Source: a virus. Taken from it: 47,894 nucleotides of DNA. The notes under the pieces were generated by a model. That model was not told where the DNA came from. It worked only from the letters and a program-made list of their open reading frames with translations, and ran no database searches. The translations under genes and the position numbers were made by a program. Below are positions 15,929-47,894 of the stretch, piece after piece. The stretch is taken from the UHGV virus genome UHGV-1372926; one strand, 5' to 3'. The stretch's first letter is position 1; every line of letters starts with the position of its first letter.

Positions 15929-16005
15929 GCACCATTAGCTCATCAGGATAGAGCAATTGCCTTCTAAGCAATCGGTAACTGGTTCGAATCCAGTATGGTG
16001 CACCA
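15929..16005 (+). tRNA. tRNA-Arg (anticodon TCT)
   Basis: Manual cloverleaf fold. Acceptor GCACCAT/ATGGTGC. D-stem GCTC/GAGC. Anticodon stem ATTGC/GCAAT with loop CTTCTAA. T-stem ACTGG/CCAGT with loop TTCGAAT. Discriminator A plus CCA. Confidence 0.8.
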
Positions 16006-16008
16006 AAT

Positions 16009-16085
16009 TCCCGTTTAGCTTAACTGGTTAAAGCACCCGACTCATAATCGGATGATTACAGGTTCGAATCCTGTCGCGGGAACCA
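16009..16085 (+). tRNA. tRNA-Met/fMet or Ile2-type (anticodon CAT)
   Basis: Manual fold. D-stem GCTT/AAGC. Anticodon loop CTCATAA. T-stem ACAGG/CCTGT with loop TTCGAAT. 3' CGCGGGA-A-CCA. One mismatch each in acceptor and anticodon stems. Confidence 0.65.
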
Positions 16086-18167: not shown

Positions 18168-18196
18168 TTGACGTAGATTGAGGGTGTCGCTATAGT
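18168..18196 (+). promoter_or_regulatory. sigma70-like promoter TTGACG-N17-TATAGT containing the conserved GTAGATTGA box
   Basis: -35 TTGACG at 18168-18173. 17 bp spacer starting TAGATTGA. -10 TATAGT at 18191-18196. Upstream of the + operon starting at 18234. Confidence 0.55.
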
Positions 18197-18545: not shown

Positions 18546-18658
18546 TTCGCCACGAAATCCGCAAAGAAGACCTGAAGTCGTGGGATAAGTTCAAAATCAA
18601 GCTGGCATTAATCGTTATCGGATTCACCATTGCCAGCGCAATCTGTTTATCGAAGTGA
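18542..18658 (+). CDS. small membrane peptide (38 aa)
   Basis: ATGA-coupled to the upstream gene. Hydrophobic stretch LALIVIGFTIASAICL. Below the track cut-off. Confidence 0.3.
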   Translation: MIRHEIRKEDLKSWDKFKIKLALIVIGFTIASAICLSK

Positions 18659-18665
18659 GGAAAAG

Positions 18666-19481
18666 ATGACATCTCTCGGAAAAATTTACTCAGACAAAGA
18701 AACTCGCGGCGGAATCGTGGTCAACAAAGGTTATCAGGTTCCTGTCGACCAGCTTTATCTTGAGCCGGGGTACAACATCCGCGAAGCCGATGAACAGCAC
18801 GTTGAATACTTCGCGCAGTGCTGGGAATCAGGCCAGCCAATCCCGGCGTTAACTGTTATTCCTGATGCCGACGGAAAGCGCATCAAGATTCTTGACGGCC
18901 AGCATCGTTACCTTGGAGCACTACGTGCCATTGAGCGCGGCGTGCCAATTGCGCGCATTGAGTGCAAAGACTTCACCGGCGATGAAGCGGATAAAATCGC
19001 CTTCATGGTGTCATCCAGTCAGGGTAAGCAGCTTGACCCGCTTGAGCGTGCAAAGGCTTATGTGCGCCTCAAAGGGTTCGGGTGGACGAATGAAGAAATC
19101 GCCAAGAAGGTCGGCCGCTCAGTTTCTGATGTGCAGATGCACCTGTCACTTGGTGATGTACCTGACGCTATCAAGCAGCGCATCAATGCAGGCCAAATCA
19201 GCTATGCCAACGCCGTTGCAGTGGCGCGCGAGCATGGCGATGATGCCGTTAACGTTATTGATACTGCCGTTAAGGAAGCGAAAGCGCAGGGCAAGGATAA
19301 GGTGACGGCTAAAACTCTCAAGGCCAAAAAAGTTAAGCCGATTGACCGCCTGATTCAGCTTCTGAAAGAAGCAGACCACATGGTTGTCGCTGAGGGTCAT
19401 GTGGCACAGGAGACAGAAGAATTTTTGCGCCTTCCTTCCGCTGAGTTGAGTGAAGTGCTGGCGATTCTGGAGAAGCTGTGA
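18666..19481 (+). CDS. ParB-like nuclease domain protein (DGQHR motif) with C-terminal HTH
   Basis: 272 aa from ATG at 18666, RBS GAGGAAAAG. Motif KILDGQHRYLGAL characteristic of the ParB/Srx N-terminal domain. Later segment NEEIAKKVGRSVSDVQMHLSL is HTH-like. Confidence 0.65.
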   Translation: MTSLGKIYSDKETRGGIVVNKGYQVPVDQLYLEPGYNIREADEQHVEYFAQCWESGQPIPALTVIPDADGKRIKILDGQHRYLGALRAIERGVPIARIECKDFTGDEADKIAFMVSSSQGKQLDPLERAKAYVRLKGFGWTNEEIAKKVGRSVSDVQMHLSLGDVPDAIKQRINAGQISYANAVAVAREHGDDAVNVIDTAVKEAKAQGKDKVTAKTLKAKKVKPIDRLIQLLKEADHMVVAEGHVAQETEEFLRLPSAELSEVLAILEKL

Positions 19482-19675
19482 TGATTACAATTGGCACTGT
19501 TGCAAAAAACATAAAAGAAGGCGATCACATCCTAATACGAGACGGCGTGGCTCGCCAGGTGGAGAGAATTCACTATCAGGAGGACATAATCGCATTTGAA
19601 ATGAAACGTTACGAAGAAAAAACAAGGCATTTCTTATTTTATGATGAATGCGCAAACGTGGTGGAGAGTTGGTAA
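19478..19675 (+). CDS. hypothetical protein
   Basis: 65 aa ORF, ATGA-coupled to the ParB-like gene. Confidence 0.4.
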   Translation: MMITIGTVAKNIKEGDHILIRDGVARQVERIHYQEDIIAFEMKRYEEKTRHFLFYDECANVVESW

Positions 19676-19851
19676 TGAACCCCGAACAATTCATAGAGAA
19701 AAACCTGCGCGAAAAACTGCCAGGTATCGACAATGCGGCTATAGAGGCCGCAATTACCCACTACAGGAGCAACCAGAGTGAAAAGAAGGGCAAGATTTTC
19801 GATGAATGCCTGAAGGTTGCAAAACAACACATGGTGAAGGTGAAGAAATGA
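19675..19851 (+). CDS. hypothetical protein (58 aa)
   Basis: Internal ATG (MNPEQF...) of track ORF 19648..19851, coupled to upstream stop. Confidence 0.35.
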   Translation: MNPEQFIEKNLREKLPGIDNAAIEAAITHYRSNQSEKKGKIFDECLKVAKQHMVKVKK

Positions 19852-20384
19852 AATTAAAAGTTAGCAAGTTGCTCCTTGAAGGTTCTTTGATATTTCAGGC
19901 CAAACAGGATGTGCGTTACTACCTGAATGGCATTTGCTTCATGCCTGATGGACGTATCGCAGCAACTGATGGACATCGCGCCATGATTGCCAGTAAGCAT
20001 GAAAATAAGTTGAAAGATAACGTTATCGTTTCTGTCAGCAAGCCTCCAACCAAGCGCTATGCGTATGCGCTACTGGACACCAAAACAGGTATTGTTACTT
20101 ACCATGATGAGCATGAAATCATGGTAGGCGCAGGTATCTGCTCTGAGATTAATGGCCGATTCCCTGACATTGATCGTGTTATCCCAAAGCAGACGGCGGC
20201 AACAGAACAAATCGGCTTCAACGCTAAATATCTGGCAGATGTAGAGAAGCTGGCGAAGCTGTTTAACCCTAAATATGAGGCGGTGCTATTTGAGCTTAAT
20301 GGCAACACCAGCGCCGCCGTCGCAAACATTAATGCGCCTACTGGCGAGACTGCCAAAGTTATTGTTATGCCAATGAGGATTTAG
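19848..20384 (+). CDS. truncated DNA polymerase III beta sliding clamp (DnaN) homolog
   Basis: 178 aa from ATG at 19848, ATGA-coupled. Three segments match E. coli DnaN from memory: QDVRYYLNG...ATDGHR (domain II start), GRFPDxxRVxPK (domain III start), and C-terminal VVMPMR(I/L). The protein covers only part of the three-domain clamp. Confidence 0.7.
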   Translation: MKLKVSKLLLEGSLIFQAKQDVRYYLNGICFMPDGRIAATDGHRAMIASKHENKLKDNVIVSVSKPPTKRYAYALLDTKTGIVTYHDEHEIMVGAGICSEINGRFPDIDRVIPKQTAATEQIGFNAKYLADVEKLAKLFNPKYEAVLFELNGNTSAAVANINAPTGETAKVIVMPMRI

Positions 20385-20386
20385 TG

Positions 20387-20668
20387 ATGAGTATTGAGTA
20401 CGAAGCGCGTTTAATTGTTGGTTGCTCACATGGTGAGGTTGGTGTTGACCAGGATAAACTTGATGACCTTGTTTCTTGCGATGATGTTGCTCGTTATGCC
20501 ACTTTCTATGATGCAGATAACGAATATTGCAACTATGGCGTTGAAATGTCTCCAGAGCAACTATCAACACTGGAAGGGGCTGCAAACGCTGCCAAGTGGA
20601 TTTCAGAGATGAACCGGCTACTGCAAACTGACAAATGCAGACTTCTTGTTACTATCGACTCTTATTAG
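20387..20668 (+). CDS. hypothetical protein
   Basis: 94 aa ORF coupled to the clamp-like gene. Last gene before the terminator. Confidence 0.4.
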   Translation: MSIEYEARLIVGCSHGEVGVDQDKLDDLVSCDDVARYATFYDADNEYCNYGVEMSPEQLSTLEGAANAAKWISEMNRLLQTDKCRLLVTIDSY

Positions 20669-20671
20669 CAG

Positions 20672-20700
20672 AACAAAGCCCCTTTCGGGGCTTTTCTTTT
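20672..20700. terminator. bidirectional rho-independent terminator
   Basis: ACAAA-GCCCC-TTTC-GGGGC-TTTTCTTTT between convergent modules. Confidence 0.75.
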
Positions 20701-21565: not shown

Positions 21566-21756
21566 TTGGTTTTCTTCGCCTTTGGCTGCGATTCTTGCGG
21601 AGTTGCAACTTCCAGAACTTTCTCACTAACCGGGCGAAGTTTTGACTCAATGTGCGGGCTTGATTCGTCAATGACATCGCCAATAGCAAGCTCACGCAGG
21701 CGACCATCTTTATCCTTGACGAAGATTCCGCTGGCGATTACTTCATATTTAGCCAT
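21562..21756 (-). CDS. small hypothetical head-associated protein
   Basis: 64 aa ORF. Acidic N-terminus and Lys-rich C-terminus. Follows the capsid genes. Confidence 0.4.
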   Translation of the reverse strand: MAKYEVIASGIFVKDKDGRLRELAIGDVIDESSPHIESKLRPVSEKVLEVATPQESQPKAKKTK

Positions 21757-22132
21757 TTTTTCCCTCCGAAAGGTTCTGCTTGAGGAGGTACCCCTCCAGC
21801 ATCCATATTTTATTTACCGCATTCTCTCTGGCAATCTTGCGACCAATCTCGGCATCGAAATTAGCGGGACTGGCGCAGGCGCTTTCCCCGGTCACGGTGA
21901 ATCCGTTTTTCAATACCAAGACGCAGAATGTGATTAGTTTTAATGATTCATGGCTCGAAAGCAAGTCAAGTGCTGACTTGTATTTTGCCCACGCACCATC
22001 CCCACCAATGCCATCATAACCCGTAAAGTAGTGCTCACTGACAATGACGTCTTCAATGTGTTGTCTGGTTACTCGTGGTGCTTCACTGCCTTTGTCCTGA
22101 ATCTCTTGCTCAATTTCTTTACTGGTCATCAT
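21749..22132 (-). CDS. hypothetical protein (FI-position head protein?)
   Basis: 127 aa ORF immediately downstream of the major capsid gene. Confidence 0.4.
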   Translation of the reverse strand: MMTSKEIEQEIQDKGSEAPRVTRQHIEDVIVSEHYFTGYDGIGGDGAWAKYKSALDLLSSHESLKLITFCVLVLKNGFTVTGESACASPANFDAEIGRKIARENAVNKIWMLEGYLLKQNLSEGKNG

Positions 22133-23737: not shown

Positions 23738-25140
23738 TATTCAGGTGCCTCCATATCAAAATCTTCTTCGGCACGGTTCGGCTGGAACCCGCCGGAAATC
23801 GGAGCCGCTTTACTGGTGAGCGCATAGGTTTCACGCAGTGCTTCGCCAGTCAGCGCATTAACAGCAGATTCCGGCAACTTCAGCTCAGCCATAATGGCGG
23901 CGCGCATTGCGGTTTCTTCCTGTGCGGCATTGGCTTGCAGCTGGTCGCGCAGGGTTTTGTTTTGCGCCTCCACATCGGCCAGTTTCTGGTTGACTGCGGT
24001 CAACGATTCCTGAACCGGTTTGAGGGCATCGGCTAATACAGCCTGTAATTCCTCGTTAGTCATTGAGATTTCCCCTTGAGTTGTTTTTACCGGTTCAAGC
24101 TCTGTCTTATAAACAGCCTTAACCCGTTCACCGACTAATTGTACCACATCATTTATAATAACGTAGGACTGCATATACTTGACGCCATCAATCTCAACGC
24201 CAAACTTATCATCATAAACAGCAAACACAAAAGGCCAGCTATCCTGGGATAACTCCTCTTTTATTTTTCTACGTATCTGATCGGCAATCTCATCAAATGA
24301 CAGGTCGCTATTTCTGGTGATGTAGTTGATGGCACGCTGCCACCATTTGATTTTGTTTGCACTTTCGTCTGGCATTGCCGATTCCTCAAGATTAACCACA
24401 ACGCGCTCAATGTCTTCGCCGTTAGCAGCAAAGATACCGACACCATCAGCAGGGCCACCAGCACCGGGAATCCCCGGCGGAAGAATGGCGAGGTGATCCC
24501 ACTCCATATTCCGGGCAATCCAGGAATATTTTTTACCCTTGGAGGTTCCTGATGCCTGCTCGCGGTTGAGCAACAGGCCCGTGGAGACTTGCACAGGTTC
24601 AGCATCAGCGCTGTTAACTTTGAGGCCATCAATTCTCGACAGCAATTCCTTGCCTTTATCAGAGCGCTCAGCTACCACCTTATTAATATAAAGGTCTACC
24701 AGCGCCTTGCTGCCGTCATGAGATGAGTTCTCAATCCATGCGCCAACACTGAACTGGTTGGCGGCTCGCGTCATGTTGGCTGACACATATTTGCCATCAA
24801 TCTTCGGGTGGTCATATGGCGCCGGTTTCCCGTCAAGACCATGGAATGACTTTTTAATCTCATCACCAGGATACAGGCCGCCATTCATGACAATGTCGTC
24901 CACAACCGGCACAACATTCTTGATGACATAATGCGGGTCGCCATCAATGATTTTTTCACTGATGTTGCTTGCTGAGTTGATGGTATACAGGATGTTAACC
25001 TGTAATTTATTATTCATGTGCTTGAATGCCTCCACCTCAGCAAGGCGCTTTTTCGCCGCCTCTTCGGTGTCGTACTCGCCAAACTGGTGCGAGCCATCCT
25101 TAGATTTAACGACCCACTTGTCGCCAATTTTGACAATCAT
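23737..25140 (-). CDS. capsid scaffolding protein / prohead protease (putative)
   Basis: 467 aa ORF. C-terminal third is coiled-coil-like ([38 protein letters not shown]). First gene of the head block downstream of the portal and morphogenesis genes. Confidence 0.45.
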
Positions 25141-25322
25141 GACCTTTCTCCGCGCTTACTTTATGCCCGGATTATAACACACCATGAATATGCACCACGA
25201 AACGGACGCGAGAAGGTAAAGCGGAGATGCGGTAAAGGCGAAAAGAGTAGCAAAGAATGATATCAGGATGATTGGCATGGCTGCTACCTCCTGAATGCAA
25301 GGTAACAGCCACGGAATAGAAT

Positions 25323-45974: not shown

Positions 45975-46014
45975 TTGCCGTAGATTCAGTCTACTATTGT
46001 GACGTAGATTGAGC
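45975..46014 (+). promoter_or_regulatory. divergent control region with two copies of the GTAGATT box (TTGCCGTAGATT and TGTGACGTAGATTGAGC)
   Basis: Between the primase (-) and helicase (+) starts. No clean -10 spacing could be assigned. Confidence 0.4.
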
Positions 46015-46032
46015 AACACAAAGGTGGATGAA

Positions 46033-47894
46033 GTGCAAAAAATTGATGCAATGATTGCTGAGCTGGATATGGATAAGCTGCGGTCCAGCATCCATACCGG
46101 GGAAATTGAACCGCGCCCCTATCAGTGGCTGGTATATGAAAAGACAGCAGAGGTTATCCGCAAGTTTGGTAAGCAGCCAAAGCCAAGTTATGTTACCGCT
46201 TCAGTTGGCGCCGGTAAGACCATCATGATAGCCATGATTGCCCGTCGTTTCCAGGATATGGGATGGGAGGGTCTTGTCATCGCGCGCCAAGGCGAAATTA
46301 TTGAGCAGGATGCAGAGGAACTCTGGAATCTGAGCGTAAAAAACTCTGTGTTTAGCGCTTCACTTGGGCGTAAGGCTTATGCCTACCCGCTTATCGCGGG
46401 AACAGAGGGCACAATAATAAATGGCCTTTTTGATAAGACAGCCGATGATGGAACCGTGACGAAATCACTGTTATCAGACTTTTCCCCGCGCTACATACTG
46501 GTTGATGAATGCCATCAGGTTAACTGGCAGGACATAATATCAGAGCAGCCAGAGACGCAGTACGGCGTCATCATGAATGAACTTAACCGGCGCTGCAAAG
46601 CAAAATATGGGCATGAGGTGATTGTCATTGGCTACACCGGCAGCCCATTTCGCGGCGTTGAGTCGATCAAGGGGGCTTACTGGAAACACGAAATCGTCAA
46701 CATCAGCACGAAATACCTTGTCGATCTTGGGTTTCTTGTTCCTACCATATTTGGTGGGCAGGATATCGAGGACTTGCAATACGATCTGCATGATTTTGCC
46801 AGTAGTGACGTTGACGGAGTGCAGGACTTCACTGATAGCCAGCTAAAAGAGATGCAGGAAGAAATCCTCAAGCAAGGTACATTGACGCAAAAAATAATGC
46901 TCAAAGTCATGGAGCTTACGCGCGACAGGCTCGGTGTACTCATTACCTGCGCCGGTAAAAAACATTGCAAGGAGGCTGCAAAATACTTACCAGAAGGAAG
47001 TTATTCCATTGTTACCGAGGATATGGGGCAGAAAGCCAGACGGAAAGCACTGAAAGATGCGGCCACCGGGCGTAAAAAATACACGCTGCAAATAGGTTGC
47101 CTGACGACTGGCGTCAACATCCCATATTGGGACACGTCTGTCATCCTGAGAAAAATCATGTCCCTGACTCTTCTTACGCAGTTGCTTGGCCGACCAATGC
47201 GCCTGTTGAAGCCTGAGCAGATTGCCGCAGGTCTGGTGAAAGAAAACCATCTTTGCCTTGACTTCACCGGAACCATGTTCGAGTTGGGCGGTCTGTACGA
47301 AGACCCGATTCTGGAAGAGGCAGAAGCGCAACGCTCAAAACGTAGCGGAGAGCAGGTTCCATGTCCTAAATGCCAGACGATGAACAGCCCATATGCACGG
47401 CGTTGCATCGGTAAAGACTCAACGTCTCCAGATGGACGATGCGAAGAGTTTTTCAGCTTCATTCGCTGTGGTTTCGACAAGCACGGCATCCGTATTTTTG
47501 ATGATGGTTGCGGCACAAAAAACGACCCGACAGCTCGTTATTGCCGTCAATGCGATCACGTTTTGCGCGACCCTAACGCGGCGCTTAATGAGCGTGCATA
47601 TACCGATTCTGAATGGACCGAAGTCAAGGATTTCAAGATTGAGCTAACGAAAGATGAGAAGGGTGTTGTTTATCGTTATTTCATCACGAAAGAAAACGGA
47701 AAGGATGGCTGGGCCAGTGAGGTGTTCTATCCATTTGGCAGGCAGGAGAAGTACCTTAAAAATCAGTTTAAGATTAAAGGATTACTAAACCACGTATCAG
47801 ACAGGAATCTGATTGATAACCTCATGAATTGCCACAACGCAAAAGCATTCATGGCGTTCACTGGTCTTATCCGCGCGCCAAAACGCATAACGCA
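46033..47894 (+). CDS. SF2 (DEAD/DEAH-box, DECH) helicase, 3' partial (runs off window end)
   Basis: GTG start 5 nt after AAGGTGG. Open frame to the window end, so absent from the ORF track. Walker A ASVGAGKT. Motif II LVDECHQV. C-terminal region has several CxxC pairs (CPKCQ, RRC, CRQCDH). Confidence 0.75.
   Translation, partial: MQKIDAMIAELDMDKLRSSIHTGEIEPRPYQWLVYEKTAEVIRKFGKQPKPSYVTASVGAGKTIMIAMIARRFQDMGWEGLVIARQGEIIEQDAEELWNLSVKNSVFSASLGRKAYAYPLIAGTEGTIINGLFDKTADDGTVTKSLLSDFSPRYILVDECHQVNWQDIISEQPETQYGVIMNELNRRCKAKYGHEVIVIGYTGSPFRGVESIKGAYWKHEIVNISTKYLVDLGFLVPTIFGGQDIEDLQYDLHDFASSDVDGVQDFTDSQLKEMQEEILKQGTLTQKIMLKVMELTRDRLGVLITCAGKKHCKEAAKYLPEGSYSIVTEDMGQKARRKALKDAATGRKKYTLQIGCLTTGVNIPYWDTSVILRKIMSLTLLTQLLGRPMRLLKPEQIAAGLVKENHLCLDFTGTMFELGGLYEDPILEEAEAQRSKRSGEQVPCPKCQTMNSPYARRCIGKDSTSPDGRCEEFFSFIRCGFDKHGIRIFDDGCGTKNDPTARYCRQCDHVLRDPNAALNERAYTDSEWTEVKDFKIELTKDEKGVVYRYFITKENGKDGWASEVFYPFGRQEKYLKNQFKIKGLLNHVSDRNLIDNLMNCHNAKAFMAFTGLIRAPKRIT

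Follow-up and report, generated by a model that had tools for sequence, protein, structure and literature searches.

Introduction

The clients of the bacterial beta sliding clamp, DnaN, include the alpha and epsilon subunits of Pol III, the delta subunit of the clamp loader, Pol II, Pol IV and Pol V, Hda, and MutS and MutL. Clamp folds that do not encircle DNA occur in the herpesviruses, where the monomeric UL42 and the C-shaped dimer UL44 act as processivity factors with a basic DNA-binding face and hold the polymerase peptide in a pocket equivalent to the client site of clamps. In E. coli, a shortened clamp named beta* was reportedly described by the Livneh laboratory in 1996 as a 26 kDa protein made from a start codon inside dnaN and induced by UV; it is said to comprise complete domains II and III, and a PCNA-like trimer was reportedly proposed for it. 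Lambdoid phages rely on the Pol III holoenzyme and the clamp loading of their host. To our knowledge, little has been described, beyond helicase loading, of how polymerase-less phages of the T1-like and lambdoid kinds win the host replicase. Several phage proteins act on the clamp or its loader, and we know of no clamp homology in Twort gp168, G1 gp240 or N4 gp8.

Closure of the DnaN ring requires Ile78 and Phe106 of domain I together with Ile272, Leu273, Glu298 and Glu304 of the first half of domain III (PMC11139829). The monomeric beta mutant I272A/L273A still binds DNA, and its affinity for delta is about 50-fold that of the dimer (PMC11139829). Twort gp168 and G1 gp240, both of Staphylococcus phages, bind DnaN, and the target of N4 gp8 is HolA, the delta subunit (PMC3594737).

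Here, we analysed a 178 aa protein encoded in a 47,894-nucleotide stretch of DNA from a T1-like phage (the window). It is best read as a monomer-sized, non-ring derivative of the proteobacterial beta sliding clamp, referred to below as the mini-clamp, in which the retained unit, a sheet across the domain II/III boundary with two flanking helices, carries the hydrophobic pocket that receives the clamp-binding motif of clients.

A shortened DnaN homologue

The open reading frame lies at 19848..20384 on the + strand, ends with the stop codon TAG (20382-20384) and encodes DnaN domain II followed by the C-terminal half of domain III. A sequence-only reading had taken the product for a truncated DnaN homologue, and both sequence comparison and the predicted structure confirm a homologue with a clamp fold. 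A phmmer search against the clamps in the PDB gave E = 2.2e-13. The match to the TIGR00663 profile was significant (E = 1.7e-10) but, at 40.4 bits, fell short of the cutoff of 137.65, the Pfam clamp domains PF02767 (19) and PF02768 (17.8) scored under their cutoff of 27, and the Pfam search gave no match to PF00712, which places the mini-clamp below all curated cutoffs of the DnaN family (TIGR00663 and PF00712+PF02767+PF02768).

The AlphaFold2 model is a compact single chain of very high confidence (pLDDT 97.1, pTM 0.91). When it was compared with the PDB using Foldseek, beta clamps were the only matches (E about 1e-8, probability 1.0, TM about 0.65), and in BFVD viral proteins of 178-196 aa share the fold (TM 0.82-0.89). 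In place of the three-domain architecture of ~366 aa, the model predicts one beta-alpha-beta-beta-beta unit after the linker, and no helix is predicted at aa 64-72, the position of the second domain-II helix of DnaN.

The near-identical segments named in the sequence-only reading were borne out by alignment with E. coli DnaN, all on the + strand. QDVRYYLNG (aa 20-28, 19905..19931) is identical to DnaN 149-157 at 9/9 positions, GRFPDIDRVIPK (aa 103-114, 20154..20189) matches GRFPDYRRVLPK (239-250) at 9/12, and within VIVMPMRI (aa 171-178, 20358..20381; DnaN 359-366) the stretch VMPMR is identical to 361-365. Two more blocks common to both proteins, beyond those listed at first, are ATDGHR (aa 39-44, 19962..19979; DnaN 171-176) and IGFNxxY, which reads IGFNAKY in the mini-clamp (aa 122-128, 20211..20231; DnaN 317-323).

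The protein also matches phrog_3007, labelled 'RusA-like Holliday junction resolvase', over its full length (E = 6.4e-58; aa 1-178 against profile positions 1-186 of 190). This label, together with the sub-threshold Pfam and TIGRFAM scores, would agree with a RusA-like resolvase or with a functionless, decaying remnant of a captured host dnaN. However, the fold is that of a clamp and the Pfam search gave no match to RusA (PF05866) at E up to 10, so that the resolvase was rejected and the PHROG/RefSeq label regarded as an annotation error. Decay, in turn, is opposed by hundreds of diverged members of uniform length that share one deletion map, by the confident and compact model, and by conservation that is targeted on the client pocket. 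Either variant of this explanation is barely credible. Hundreds of phage records carry the labels 'DNA polymerase III beta subunit', 'DNA polymerase' or 'RusA-like resolvase', and the present assignment corrects this annotation. In the full-text literature we found no functional study of the family, only genome notes that name Pol III beta.

Gene start and operon

The ATG at 19848 overlaps the stop codon of an upstream gene (ATGA) and lies 3' of a Shine-Dalgarno-like stretch, GAAGGTGAAG. Many gene callers choose the alternative ATG at 19806, which yields 192 aa; since diverged homologues begin with MK[IL]K and are ~178 aa long, 19848 is the likelier start. The overlapping gene (19648..19851, + strand) encodes a 67 aa protein of phrog_4439, found immediately 5' of the mini-clamp in 40/40 T1-like loci examined. 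Because it also occurs in 16/21 relatives without a mini-clamp, it was rejected as an obligate partner.

Further upstream, on the same strand, a ParB-like protein (HTH_ParB/KorB, with the DGQHR motif in KILDGQHRY; 18630..19481) forms the conserved head of the operon, and the cargo downstream of it varies. It is co-directional with the mini-clamp gene, and the pair is bracketed by a promoter and a strong terminator. The former is a sigma70-like TTGACG-17-TATAGT (18168..18196, + strand), 10/12 as a consensus match only, which precedes the first operon gene (18219). The terminator-like site at 20675..20694 consists of a GC-rich hairpin, AAAGCCCCTTTCGGGGCTTT, with a run of T residues after it, and separates the operon from the convergent late genes. 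The last operon gene (20384..20668, + strand) encodes a 94 aa protein with no assigned function and is not conserved beside the clamp in relatives. The operon linkage to the ParB-like gene proposed in the sequence-only reading holds in the window; it is specific to the T1-like lineage, and in lambdoid phages the mini-clamp gene lies between cII and O.

The window encodes a primase, an SF2 helicase, a DUF3987 helicase-like protein, a PD-(D/E)XK exonuclease and ERF, and no DNA polymerase was detected among the ten ORFs scanned against Pfam. The largest ORFs (about 470-970 aa) were outside that scan; their synteny with two annotated close relatives led us to take them as structural. [quoted passage not shown] The conclusion drawn from it, that the phage must use host Pol III, is too narrow as an account of the family, which also occurs in phages that encode their own PolA, Acinetobacter phage 4316 and Salmonella phage SE1.

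No canonical QLxLF clamp-binding motif was found in the phage's own proteins; across the window ORFs the pattern Q[LIVMA]x[LIVM]F gave 3 matches, each within a short open stretch (47-129 codons). The anti-phage defence and counter-defence models of PADLOC-DB gave no match to the mini-clamp or to the five other operon proteins.

Loss of both ring-closing regions

Where parts of domains II and III had been named at first, the alignment allows a sharper statement. Residues 1-114 (19848..20189, + strand) correspond to the whole of E. coli domain II (about 127-250), including the interdomain linker, and residues 116-178 (20193..20381, + strand) form the single beta-alpha-beta-beta-beta unit of DnaN 311-366, which is the second half only of domain III. 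The mini-clamp therefore aligns to DnaN ~127-250 joined to 311-366, with domain I and 251-310 missing. The same map was found in 105 representatives, family members at 50% identity or less, which show 0% occupancy over DnaN 1-136 (with a few N-terminal residues scattered there by the aligner), 256-293 and 300-313; at 251-255 and 294-299 only a few linker residues land. The mini-clamp is not a random DnaN fragment.

Both ring-closing regions are thus absent from the mini-clamp and from all 105 representatives, which disfavours co-assembly with host DnaN, and the proposal in the sequence-only reading that the protein co-assembles with or poisons the host clamp is not sustained. Homology to DnaN and one exposed free beta edge of domain II, the latter suggested by the domain layout, might allow a mini-clamp to join host DnaN monomers and to cap or open their ring. 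However, it has no counterpart of I78, F106, I272, L273, E298 or E304, and the model lacks the helix of domain II expected to imitate the interface helix of domain I, which makes such a subunit poison very improbable. The mini-clamp is probably monomeric.

A second way to a ring would be a true sliding clamp of four copies acting as a processivity factor, each contributing three beta-alpha-beta-beta-beta units to a ring of twelve that would close by dyad-related contacts, between the half-domains III of neighbours and between their domain II edges. The arithmetic is suggestive, since 4 x 1.5 domains would make six. The clamp fold and the proximity to PolA in phage 4316 would agree with it, as would the basic character of the protein (pI 8.98 versus 5.25 for DnaN; family median 8.4) and the conserved lysines K19, K134 and K137 on the two retained channel-side helices. 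Against this assembly, both canonical interfaces are deleted, the missing second domain-II helix would leave the ring lining incomplete, conservation is poor along the outer edge strand (aa 92-101), and the exposed face of helix 126-139 appears charged rather than hydrophobic. The gene is also accessory and occurs in phages without their own polymerase. We consider the four-copy ring improbable; if true, it would be a fourth clamp architecture, with both faces equivalent.

Conservation of the client pocket

The residues of the clamp-binding-motif pocket (18 positions, subsites I and II) were taken from PMC11139829. Those in the blocks described above are R152 and L155 in QDVRYYLNG; T172, G174, H175 and R176 in ATDGHR; P242, R246 and V247 in GRFPDIDRVIPK; N320 and Y323 of subsite II in IGFNAKY; and V360 (here I), M362, P363, M364 and R365 in VIVMPMRI. 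The mini-clamp is identical to E. coli DnaN at 15/18 pocket positions and at 40/147 positions (27%) elsewhere (Fisher p=5.6e-6), and the three exceptions are conservative (L177A, V344A and V360I).

The same residues stand out across the family. Pocket positions are the top-conserved columns among the 105 diverged members, in which D150, R152, Y154, L155, G157, T172, G174, H175, G239, P242, D243, Y323, M362, P363 and R365 are conserved at 80% or more, and P106 of the mini-clamp is invariant. Our key result, at the level of sequence, is that the conserved segments are exactly the residues of the clamp-binding-motif pocket.

The pocket is the most conserved part of cellular DnaN as well, and part of the signal could be inheritance. 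Pure inheritance is opposed by the persistence of pocket conservation at ~30% overall identity.

Distribution of the family

Among the proteins searched, 161 cluster representatives scored below 1e-10, nearly all of them 170-210 aa long. The long matches P0246 and P0260 were discarded as WD40 repeat proteins with a chance match to 'VCFSPDGR'. The mini-clamp is carried by 24/38 of the closest relatives and missing from 14/38, and it occurs in 2/70 lambdoid phages with one helicase type. ZCKp20p and MK54 are one natural pair of relatives that differ in its presence. This distribution shows an accessory early gene that is dispensable in close relatives, so that any role in replication would be auxiliary. 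One genome paper treats it, despite this accessory status, as a conserved phylogenetic marker (PMC9901506).

The genomic setting differs between lineages. In lambdoid phages the gene has an early position linked to replication, in the order Cro-CII-miniclamp-O-DnaB, with CII directly upstream in 31/41 loci. In phage Sortsne the mini-clamp adjoins the primase, a dUTPase and methyltransferases, in Acinetobacter phage 4316 it is adjacent to PolA, and the genome of Salmonella phage SE1 holds both PolA and a family member. T1-like and Jersey-like phages carry it away from their replication module. Several types of replication module thus co-occur with the mini-clamp, with a phage polymerase present or absent, and this independence points to a host partner or to DNA as the common ligand.

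The slot itself is variable, and sibling phages carry a C5-cytosine methyltransferase there. Klebsiella phage KlebP_265 has a 172 aa 'YppF-like' protein in this position, which was rejected as a diverged mini-clamp on a BLASTP E of 0.23 and the lack of any Pfam match. The DnaB-like helicases beside lambdoid mini-clamps end in a C-terminal basic linker and GGF. This tail was rejected as a pocket ligand, being present in 69/70 helicases (67/68 without a mini-clamp and 2/2 with one).

Proposed function

We tentatively favour, at a little less than an even chance, a role for the mini-clamp as a detached client-binding pocket, which captures the clamp clients of the host outside the ring and diverts host factors towards phage use. 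The mini-clamp would be produced early from the sigma70-type operon and bind, away from the ring, host proteins of replication and repair through their clamp-binding motifs. Scarce host factors, above all Pol III* and the clamp loader, would then be drawn from host clamps to phage use. Meanwhile, the protein may sit on DNA, because it is basic (pI 9.0 versus 5.25 for DnaN). Binding of client motifs by the pocket is suggested by its residues and binding of DNA by the charge, and the direction of the effect is presumed to be recruitment rather than inhibition.

A pocket so close to that of the host should compete for delta and alpha and thereby harm T1-like and lambdoid phages, which depend on host Pol III. 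This harm would be avoided if the mini-clamp were localised or its level tuned. Three further observations speak against the proposal, namely the dispensability of the gene in close relatives, its place apart from the replication module in T1-like and Jersey-like phages, and the lack of a canonical QLxLF motif among the proteins of the phage.

The sequence-only reading had also offered a clamp-binding decoy, which fits the pocket conservation (15/18). As a purely inhibitory decoy, the free pocket would soak up clients, the delta wrench first, and shut down host replication or repair, much as N4 gp8 does through HolA and Twort gp168 and G1 gp240 do through DnaN. The same pocket conservation would be expected, monomeric beta holds delta at ~7.5 nM compared with ~460 nM for the dimer (PMC11139829), and host shut-off by phage proteins aimed at DnaN or delta has precedents (PMC3594737). 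The variable accessory slot, filled by a C5-cytosine methyltransferase in sibling phages, and the occurrence of the family in phages with their own PolA, which have no need of host Pol III, also agree with inhibition. However, T1-like carriers lack a polymerase, a strong client sink would block replication of the lambdoid carriers, in which the gene lies between cII and O, and a decoy would not need the basic charge. Pure inhibition is rather unlikely.

Client capture could extend to a new class of loader-independent, non-encircling, 'pocket-only' clamp mimics that sit on phage DNA or the replisome and commandeer the few Pol III*/clamp-loader assemblies of the cell and other clients. This wider claim is possible but doubtful; if true, it would describe a portable hijack of the host replicase for polymerase-less phages. 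A natural minimal copy of the client pocket would offer a testable handle on host-replicase capture. It may also represent the minimal part of DnaN retained in evolution when nothing but client binding counts, which is relevant to antibiotics directed at the beta-clamp pocket.

Comparison with known systems

In comparison with E. coli DnaN (P0A988; PDB 1MMI, 2POL and 6AMQ), the mini-clamp shows 34% identity over the aligned parts, the same fold and a pocket identical at 15 of 18 positions, the C-terminal MPMR strand included. It differs in being half the size, in lacking domain I, the first half of domain III and the dimer interface, in being basic instead of acidic and without a predicted second domain-II helix, and in being an accessory phage gene as opposed to an essential cellular one. 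A comparable truncation is the reported E. coli beta*, which is likewise said to be shortened at the N-terminus, with a start near the domain I/II boundary close to that of the mini-clamp; the mini-clamp additionally lacks half of domain III.

A tether variant of our explanation would work in the manner of UL42 and UL44. However, these proteins have two full domains and no sequence relationship to the mini-clamp and serve a virus-encoded polymerase, and DNA binding by the mini-clamp is suggested by charge.

The monomeric beta I272A/L273A (PDB 1JQL, with delta) is similarly a non-ring clamp that keeps the pocket (PMC11139829), but it was engineered and retains all three domains, whereas the mini-clamp is natural and has 1.5. 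Twort gp168, G1 gp240 and N4 gp8 would resemble the mini-clamp in being phage proteins that redirect host replication, or shut it off, by way of the clamp and its clients. Their target is the clamp or its loader, whereas the mini-clamp would mimic the docking site. Finally, a clamp fold is also encoded by phages as T4 gp45, as DnaN of 350-400 aa, and as BFVD forms of about 240-290 aa (such as those of Rhodococcus phage REQ2 and Burkholderia phage BcepNazgul), and some of these phage clamps share the homology network of the mini-clamp. Those clamps contain whole numbers of domains that fit dimeric or trimeric rings, in contrast to the 1.5 domains of the mini-clamp family.

Homology of the mini-clamp to DnaN

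The mini-clamp, the 178 aa product of the ORF at 19848..20384 (+), had been proposed in a sequence-only reading to be a truncated homologue of the beta sliding clamp DnaN. This proposal is borne out, as the ORF is real, its similarity to clamps is significant and its predicted fold is that of a clamp. All three DnaN segments named in that reading are present in the protein (residue numbers refer to E. coli DnaN, those preceded by aa to the mini-clamp). QDVRYYLNG is identical to residues 149-157 at 9/9 positions, GRFPDIDRVIPK matches residues 239-250 at 9 of 12, and VMPMR equals residues 361-365. Two further blocks, ATDGHR (171-176) and IGFNxxY (317-323), are also common to both proteins. The profile search against the DnaN family gave significant matches (TIGR00663, 1.7e-10); phrog_947 ('processivity factor') matched at 2.5e-11 and the clamps of the PDB, searched with phmmer, at 2.2e-13. 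Despite this significant similarity, none of the curated DnaN cutoffs was reached. As judged from its sequence, the mini-clamp is a relative of DnaN and not a member.

The AlphaFold2 model, built from the family alignment, shows a compact chain with a pLDDT of 97.1 and a pTM of 0.91. Long helices are limited to aa 7-16 and aa 126-139, and aa 64-72, which correspond to the second domain II helix of DnaN, are not helical. The structural comparison likewise gave a clamp fold, since Foldseek against the PDB returned beta clamps only (E ~1e-8, TM ~0.65 on the query); none of these solved structures has the mini-clamp architecture. Viral proteins of 178-196 aa in BFVD share the same fold (TM 0.82-0.89).

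Deletion map and retention of the binding pocket

In pairwise and family alignments, aa 1-114 align to DnaN 127-250, which is the complete domain II and the interdomain linker, and aa 116-178 align to DnaN 311-366, which makes up the second half of domain III (one beta-alpha-beta-beta-beta unit). Nothing in the mini-clamp corresponds to domain I or to residues 251-310 in these alignments. The earlier description as parts of domains II and III only is thereby sharpened to all of II and the second half of III. An alignment of E. coli DnaN with 105 representatives of the family (clustered at ≤50% identity) was then examined. Residues 137-250 and 314-366 are occupied in 105/105 representatives, and residues 14-100, 256-293 and 300-313 in 0/105. 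A few N-terminal residues are placed elsewhere in 1-136, scattered by the aligner, and a few linker residues fall at 251-255 and 294-299. Because the deletion map is common to the 105 representatives, it is a family trait and not an accident of one phage. Phage clamp relatives of intermediate size also occur, namely P0261 (289 aa) from the family search and the BFVD entries G9FGZ4 (266 aa) and Q6UYL9 (237 aa). In P0261, an extra ~55 aa seem to have been kept between linker and last half-domain, so that its domain III may be complete. These relatives suggest that phage clamps form a series shortened step by step.

The clamp-binding-motif pocket of DnaN is formed by subsite I (R152, L155, T172, G174, H175, R176, L177, P242, R246, V247, V360 and M362) and subsite II (H175, N320, Y323, V344, M362, P363, M364 and R365), and the ring is closed by pairing of I78 and F106 of domain I with I272, L273, E298 and E304 of the first half of domain III (PMC11139829). 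The mini-clamp is identical to E. coli DnaN at 15 of the 18 pocket residues, the other three being conservative changes (L177A, V344A and V360I), compared with 40/147 residues outside the pocket (Fisher p=5.6e-6). The family columns conserved at ≥80% are D150, R152, Y154, L155, G157, T172, G174, H175, G239, P242, D243, Y323, M362, P363 and R365. By the known clamp topology, the pocket would lie on the sheet that the domain II strand with residues 172-177 builds together with the C-terminal strand of domain III. Given this topology, the mini-clamp appears to keep exactly the cross-boundary unit that bears the pocket.

The ring-interface residues, on the other hand, all fall in the deleted regions. 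Co-assembly with host DnaN, which the sequence-only reading had considered, is therefore disfavoured, because the interfaces for such a hetero-assembly are absent. A homo-oligomeric ring of four mini-clamps is topologically conceivable, with 4 x 3 = 12 repeat units, but three features speak against it: the model lacks the helix at aa 64-72, conservation of the outer edge is poor and the exposed helix face is charged.

Genomic context in the window

The mini-clamp belongs to a + strand unit of six genes, antisense among head and tail genes, with the ParB-like gene in second place, in line with the operon described before. The unit starts with a sigma70-like promoter (18168-18196, +), followed on the + strand by genes for a 108 aa protein, the ParB-like/KorB-like protein, a 65 aa protein, a 67 aa protein of phrog_4439 (19648-19851), the mini-clamp and a 94 aa protein, and is closed by a hairpin terminator (20675-20694). 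The mini-clamp ATG and the TGA of the 67 aa gene overlap as ATGA, downstream of the Shine-Dalgarno-like stretch GAAGGTGAAG. Many gene callers choose an ATG 42 nt upstream, giving a 192 aa form. The start at 19848 was adopted because homologues at 40-50% identity are ~178 aa long and begin with MK[IL]K. T1-like phages keep the phrog_4439 protein whether or not they carry the mini-clamp, and the EKLPGIxNAAIEAA segment of this protein recurs at the N-terminus of a 172 aa 'YppF-like' protein of KlebP_265 (L012, 2839-3357).

The window is a T1-like siphovirus genome with 92-95% nucleotide identity to Klebsiella phages, Aeromonas phage pIS4-A and Vibrio phage pYD38-A. Its replication and recombination genes encode an SF2 helicase, a DUF3987 protein, a primase, a PD-(D/E)XK exonuclease and ERF. 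As previously stated for this phage, no DNA polymerase was found among the ten ORFs scanned against Pfam, and two annotated relatives list no polymerase gene other than the mini-clamp; the largest ORFs, outside the scan, are assumed from synteny with these relatives to be structural. The SF2 helicase ORF (46003-47892) runs off the 3' end without a stop, and an HNH endonuclease with an AP2-like domain is encoded at 58-579. Relatives have these two genes side by side, which suggests that the window is a complete genome, circularly permuted and cut where the helicase gene ends. Adjacent tRNA-Arg(TCT) and tRNA-Met(CAT) genes lie at 15929-16085 (+), and relatives carry the same pair or tRNA-Arg only. 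The region from the major capsid gene to the mini-clamp operon includes a gene (21749-22132, -) for a 127 aa member of the N4 gp49 / Sf6 gp66 family (PF13876, 8e-34); this family also occurs near a mini-clamp in the unrelated contig L008. Klebsiella phage ZCKp20p (L001), which is closely related, carries a TnpB-family RNA-guided endonuclease gene (24132-25262) inserted among head-tail connector genes; the corresponding window region (~16.1-18.0 kb) holds no ORF of ≥200 aa.

Family and distribution

An exhaustive HMMER search gave 161 cluster representatives below 1e-10, almost all of 170-210 aa, and full-length DnaN enters only at ~1e-11. P0246 and P0260 (>1000 aa, ~1e-11) were rejected as false positives: both are WD40 repeat proteins, and the 'VCFSPDGR' of their repeats is similar to 'ICFMPDGR'. 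Homologues occur in 280 GenBank phage records, many of which label them 'DNA polymerase III beta subunit' and others 'DNA polymerase'. 'RusA-like Holliday junction resolvase', the label of phrog_3007 in PHROGs v4, has spread into many RefSeq phage records, including NC_042037.1, NC_071143.1, NC_071150.1 and NC_048178.1. This identity was rejected, as no RusA Pfam match was obtained at E up to 10 and the fold is that of a clamp.

Among T1-like siblings, the cargo 3' of the ParB-like gene differs, with three small ORFs in Klebsiella phage MK54 (L011) and, in Klebsiella phage KlebP_265, genes for a C5-cytosine methyltransferase and for an unrelated protein of 172 aa. The contents of this variable slot (window 18630-20668; L011, L012, L016, L022, L036-L040) are the mini-clamp, a C5-cytosine DNA methyltransferase, the two together or nothing but small ORFs, and phages differing in its content have flanks >90% identical. 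The mini-clamp is present in 54/75 assessable IMG/VR loci with the ParB-like gene and absent from 21/75; the closest relatives (ParB-like protein at ≥90% identity) divide into 24 with and 14 without it.

In a second large lineage, the mini-clamp sits in the lambdoid early-right operon. By Pfam, locus L078 reads cI(S24) leftward, then Cro, CII, mini-clamp, replication protein O and DnaB-like helicase rightward. CII lies directly upstream in 31 of 41 non-T1 loci, and the helicase lies within 3.5 kb in 18 of these 41; phages with the same helicase family (≥68% identity) carry the mini-clamp in only 2/70 cases. These DnaB-like helicases (L095-L174, e.g. L064 11551-12996) end in a basic low-complexity linker and a C-terminal GGF (e.g. 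...EEKPRNRKGGF) in 69/70 cases, a tail that resembles a conserved docking tail and whose occurrence is unrelated to mini-clamp presence. Elsewhere, the gene lies between two methyltransferases, adjoining primase and dUTPase (phage Sortsne), near Dam and SSB (a temperate Vibrio myovirus), immediately after phage PolA (Acinetobacter phage 4316), alone and antisense beside the major capsid gene (Salmonella phage SE1, with its own PolA), or in plasmid-borne prophages, within the early-left operon. The mini-clamp is an early-expressed, sporadic accessory gene, indifferent to the type of replication module.

Proposed mode of action

Because the host-type client pocket is kept and both ring interfaces are discarded, the simplest reading is that the mini-clamp would bind clamp-binding motifs without acting as a clamp. 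Its independence of the replication-module type points to a host protein or DNA, and not a particular phage protein, as the common partner. Client binding could result in sequestration or in diversion and recruitment. The former, with the mini-clamp as a decoy, is a strong rival, as the accessory distribution and the slot shared with a methyltransferase fit a takeover factor equally well. However, many carriers, namely the T1-like phages without a polymerase and the lambdoid phages, require the host Pol III holoenzyme and clamp loading, so that a strong client sink would be self-defeating. The mini-clamp also often heads or adjoins replication modules. In addition, it is basic (pI 9.0, family median 8.4, versus 5.25 for DnaN), and lysines on the two helices that remain are conserved in the family, which makes DNA or an acidic partner a putative second ligand. 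On these grounds, and given the independence of the module type, we lean towards diversion of clamp clients. The prediction of motif binding is sharp and cheap to test.

Comparison with known systems

The mini-clamp shares with DnaN the predicted fold and the pocket residues, but differs in score, domain count, dimer interface and essential-gene status. Full-text literature searches turned up no study that addresses the 1.5-domain architecture, the conservation confined to the pocket or the function; one genome paper uses the mini-clamp as a conserved marker with no comment on its size (PMC9901506). The phage anti-clamp proteins Twort gp168, G1 gp240 and N4 gp8 bind the clamp or its loader (PMC3594737), whereas the mini-clamp would mimic the docking site. 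E. coli beta*, an N-terminally truncated clamp, keeps both remaining domains complete, in contrast to the 1.5 domains found here. Monomeric beta (I272A/L273A) binds DNA and does not support processive Pol III synthesis, and it is bound by the delta wrench ~50-fold more tightly than the ring (PMC11139829). We propose, by analogy, that the mini-clamp may work most like this engineered monomer. For a tether variant of the motif-binding reading, the likeness would be herpesvirus UL42.
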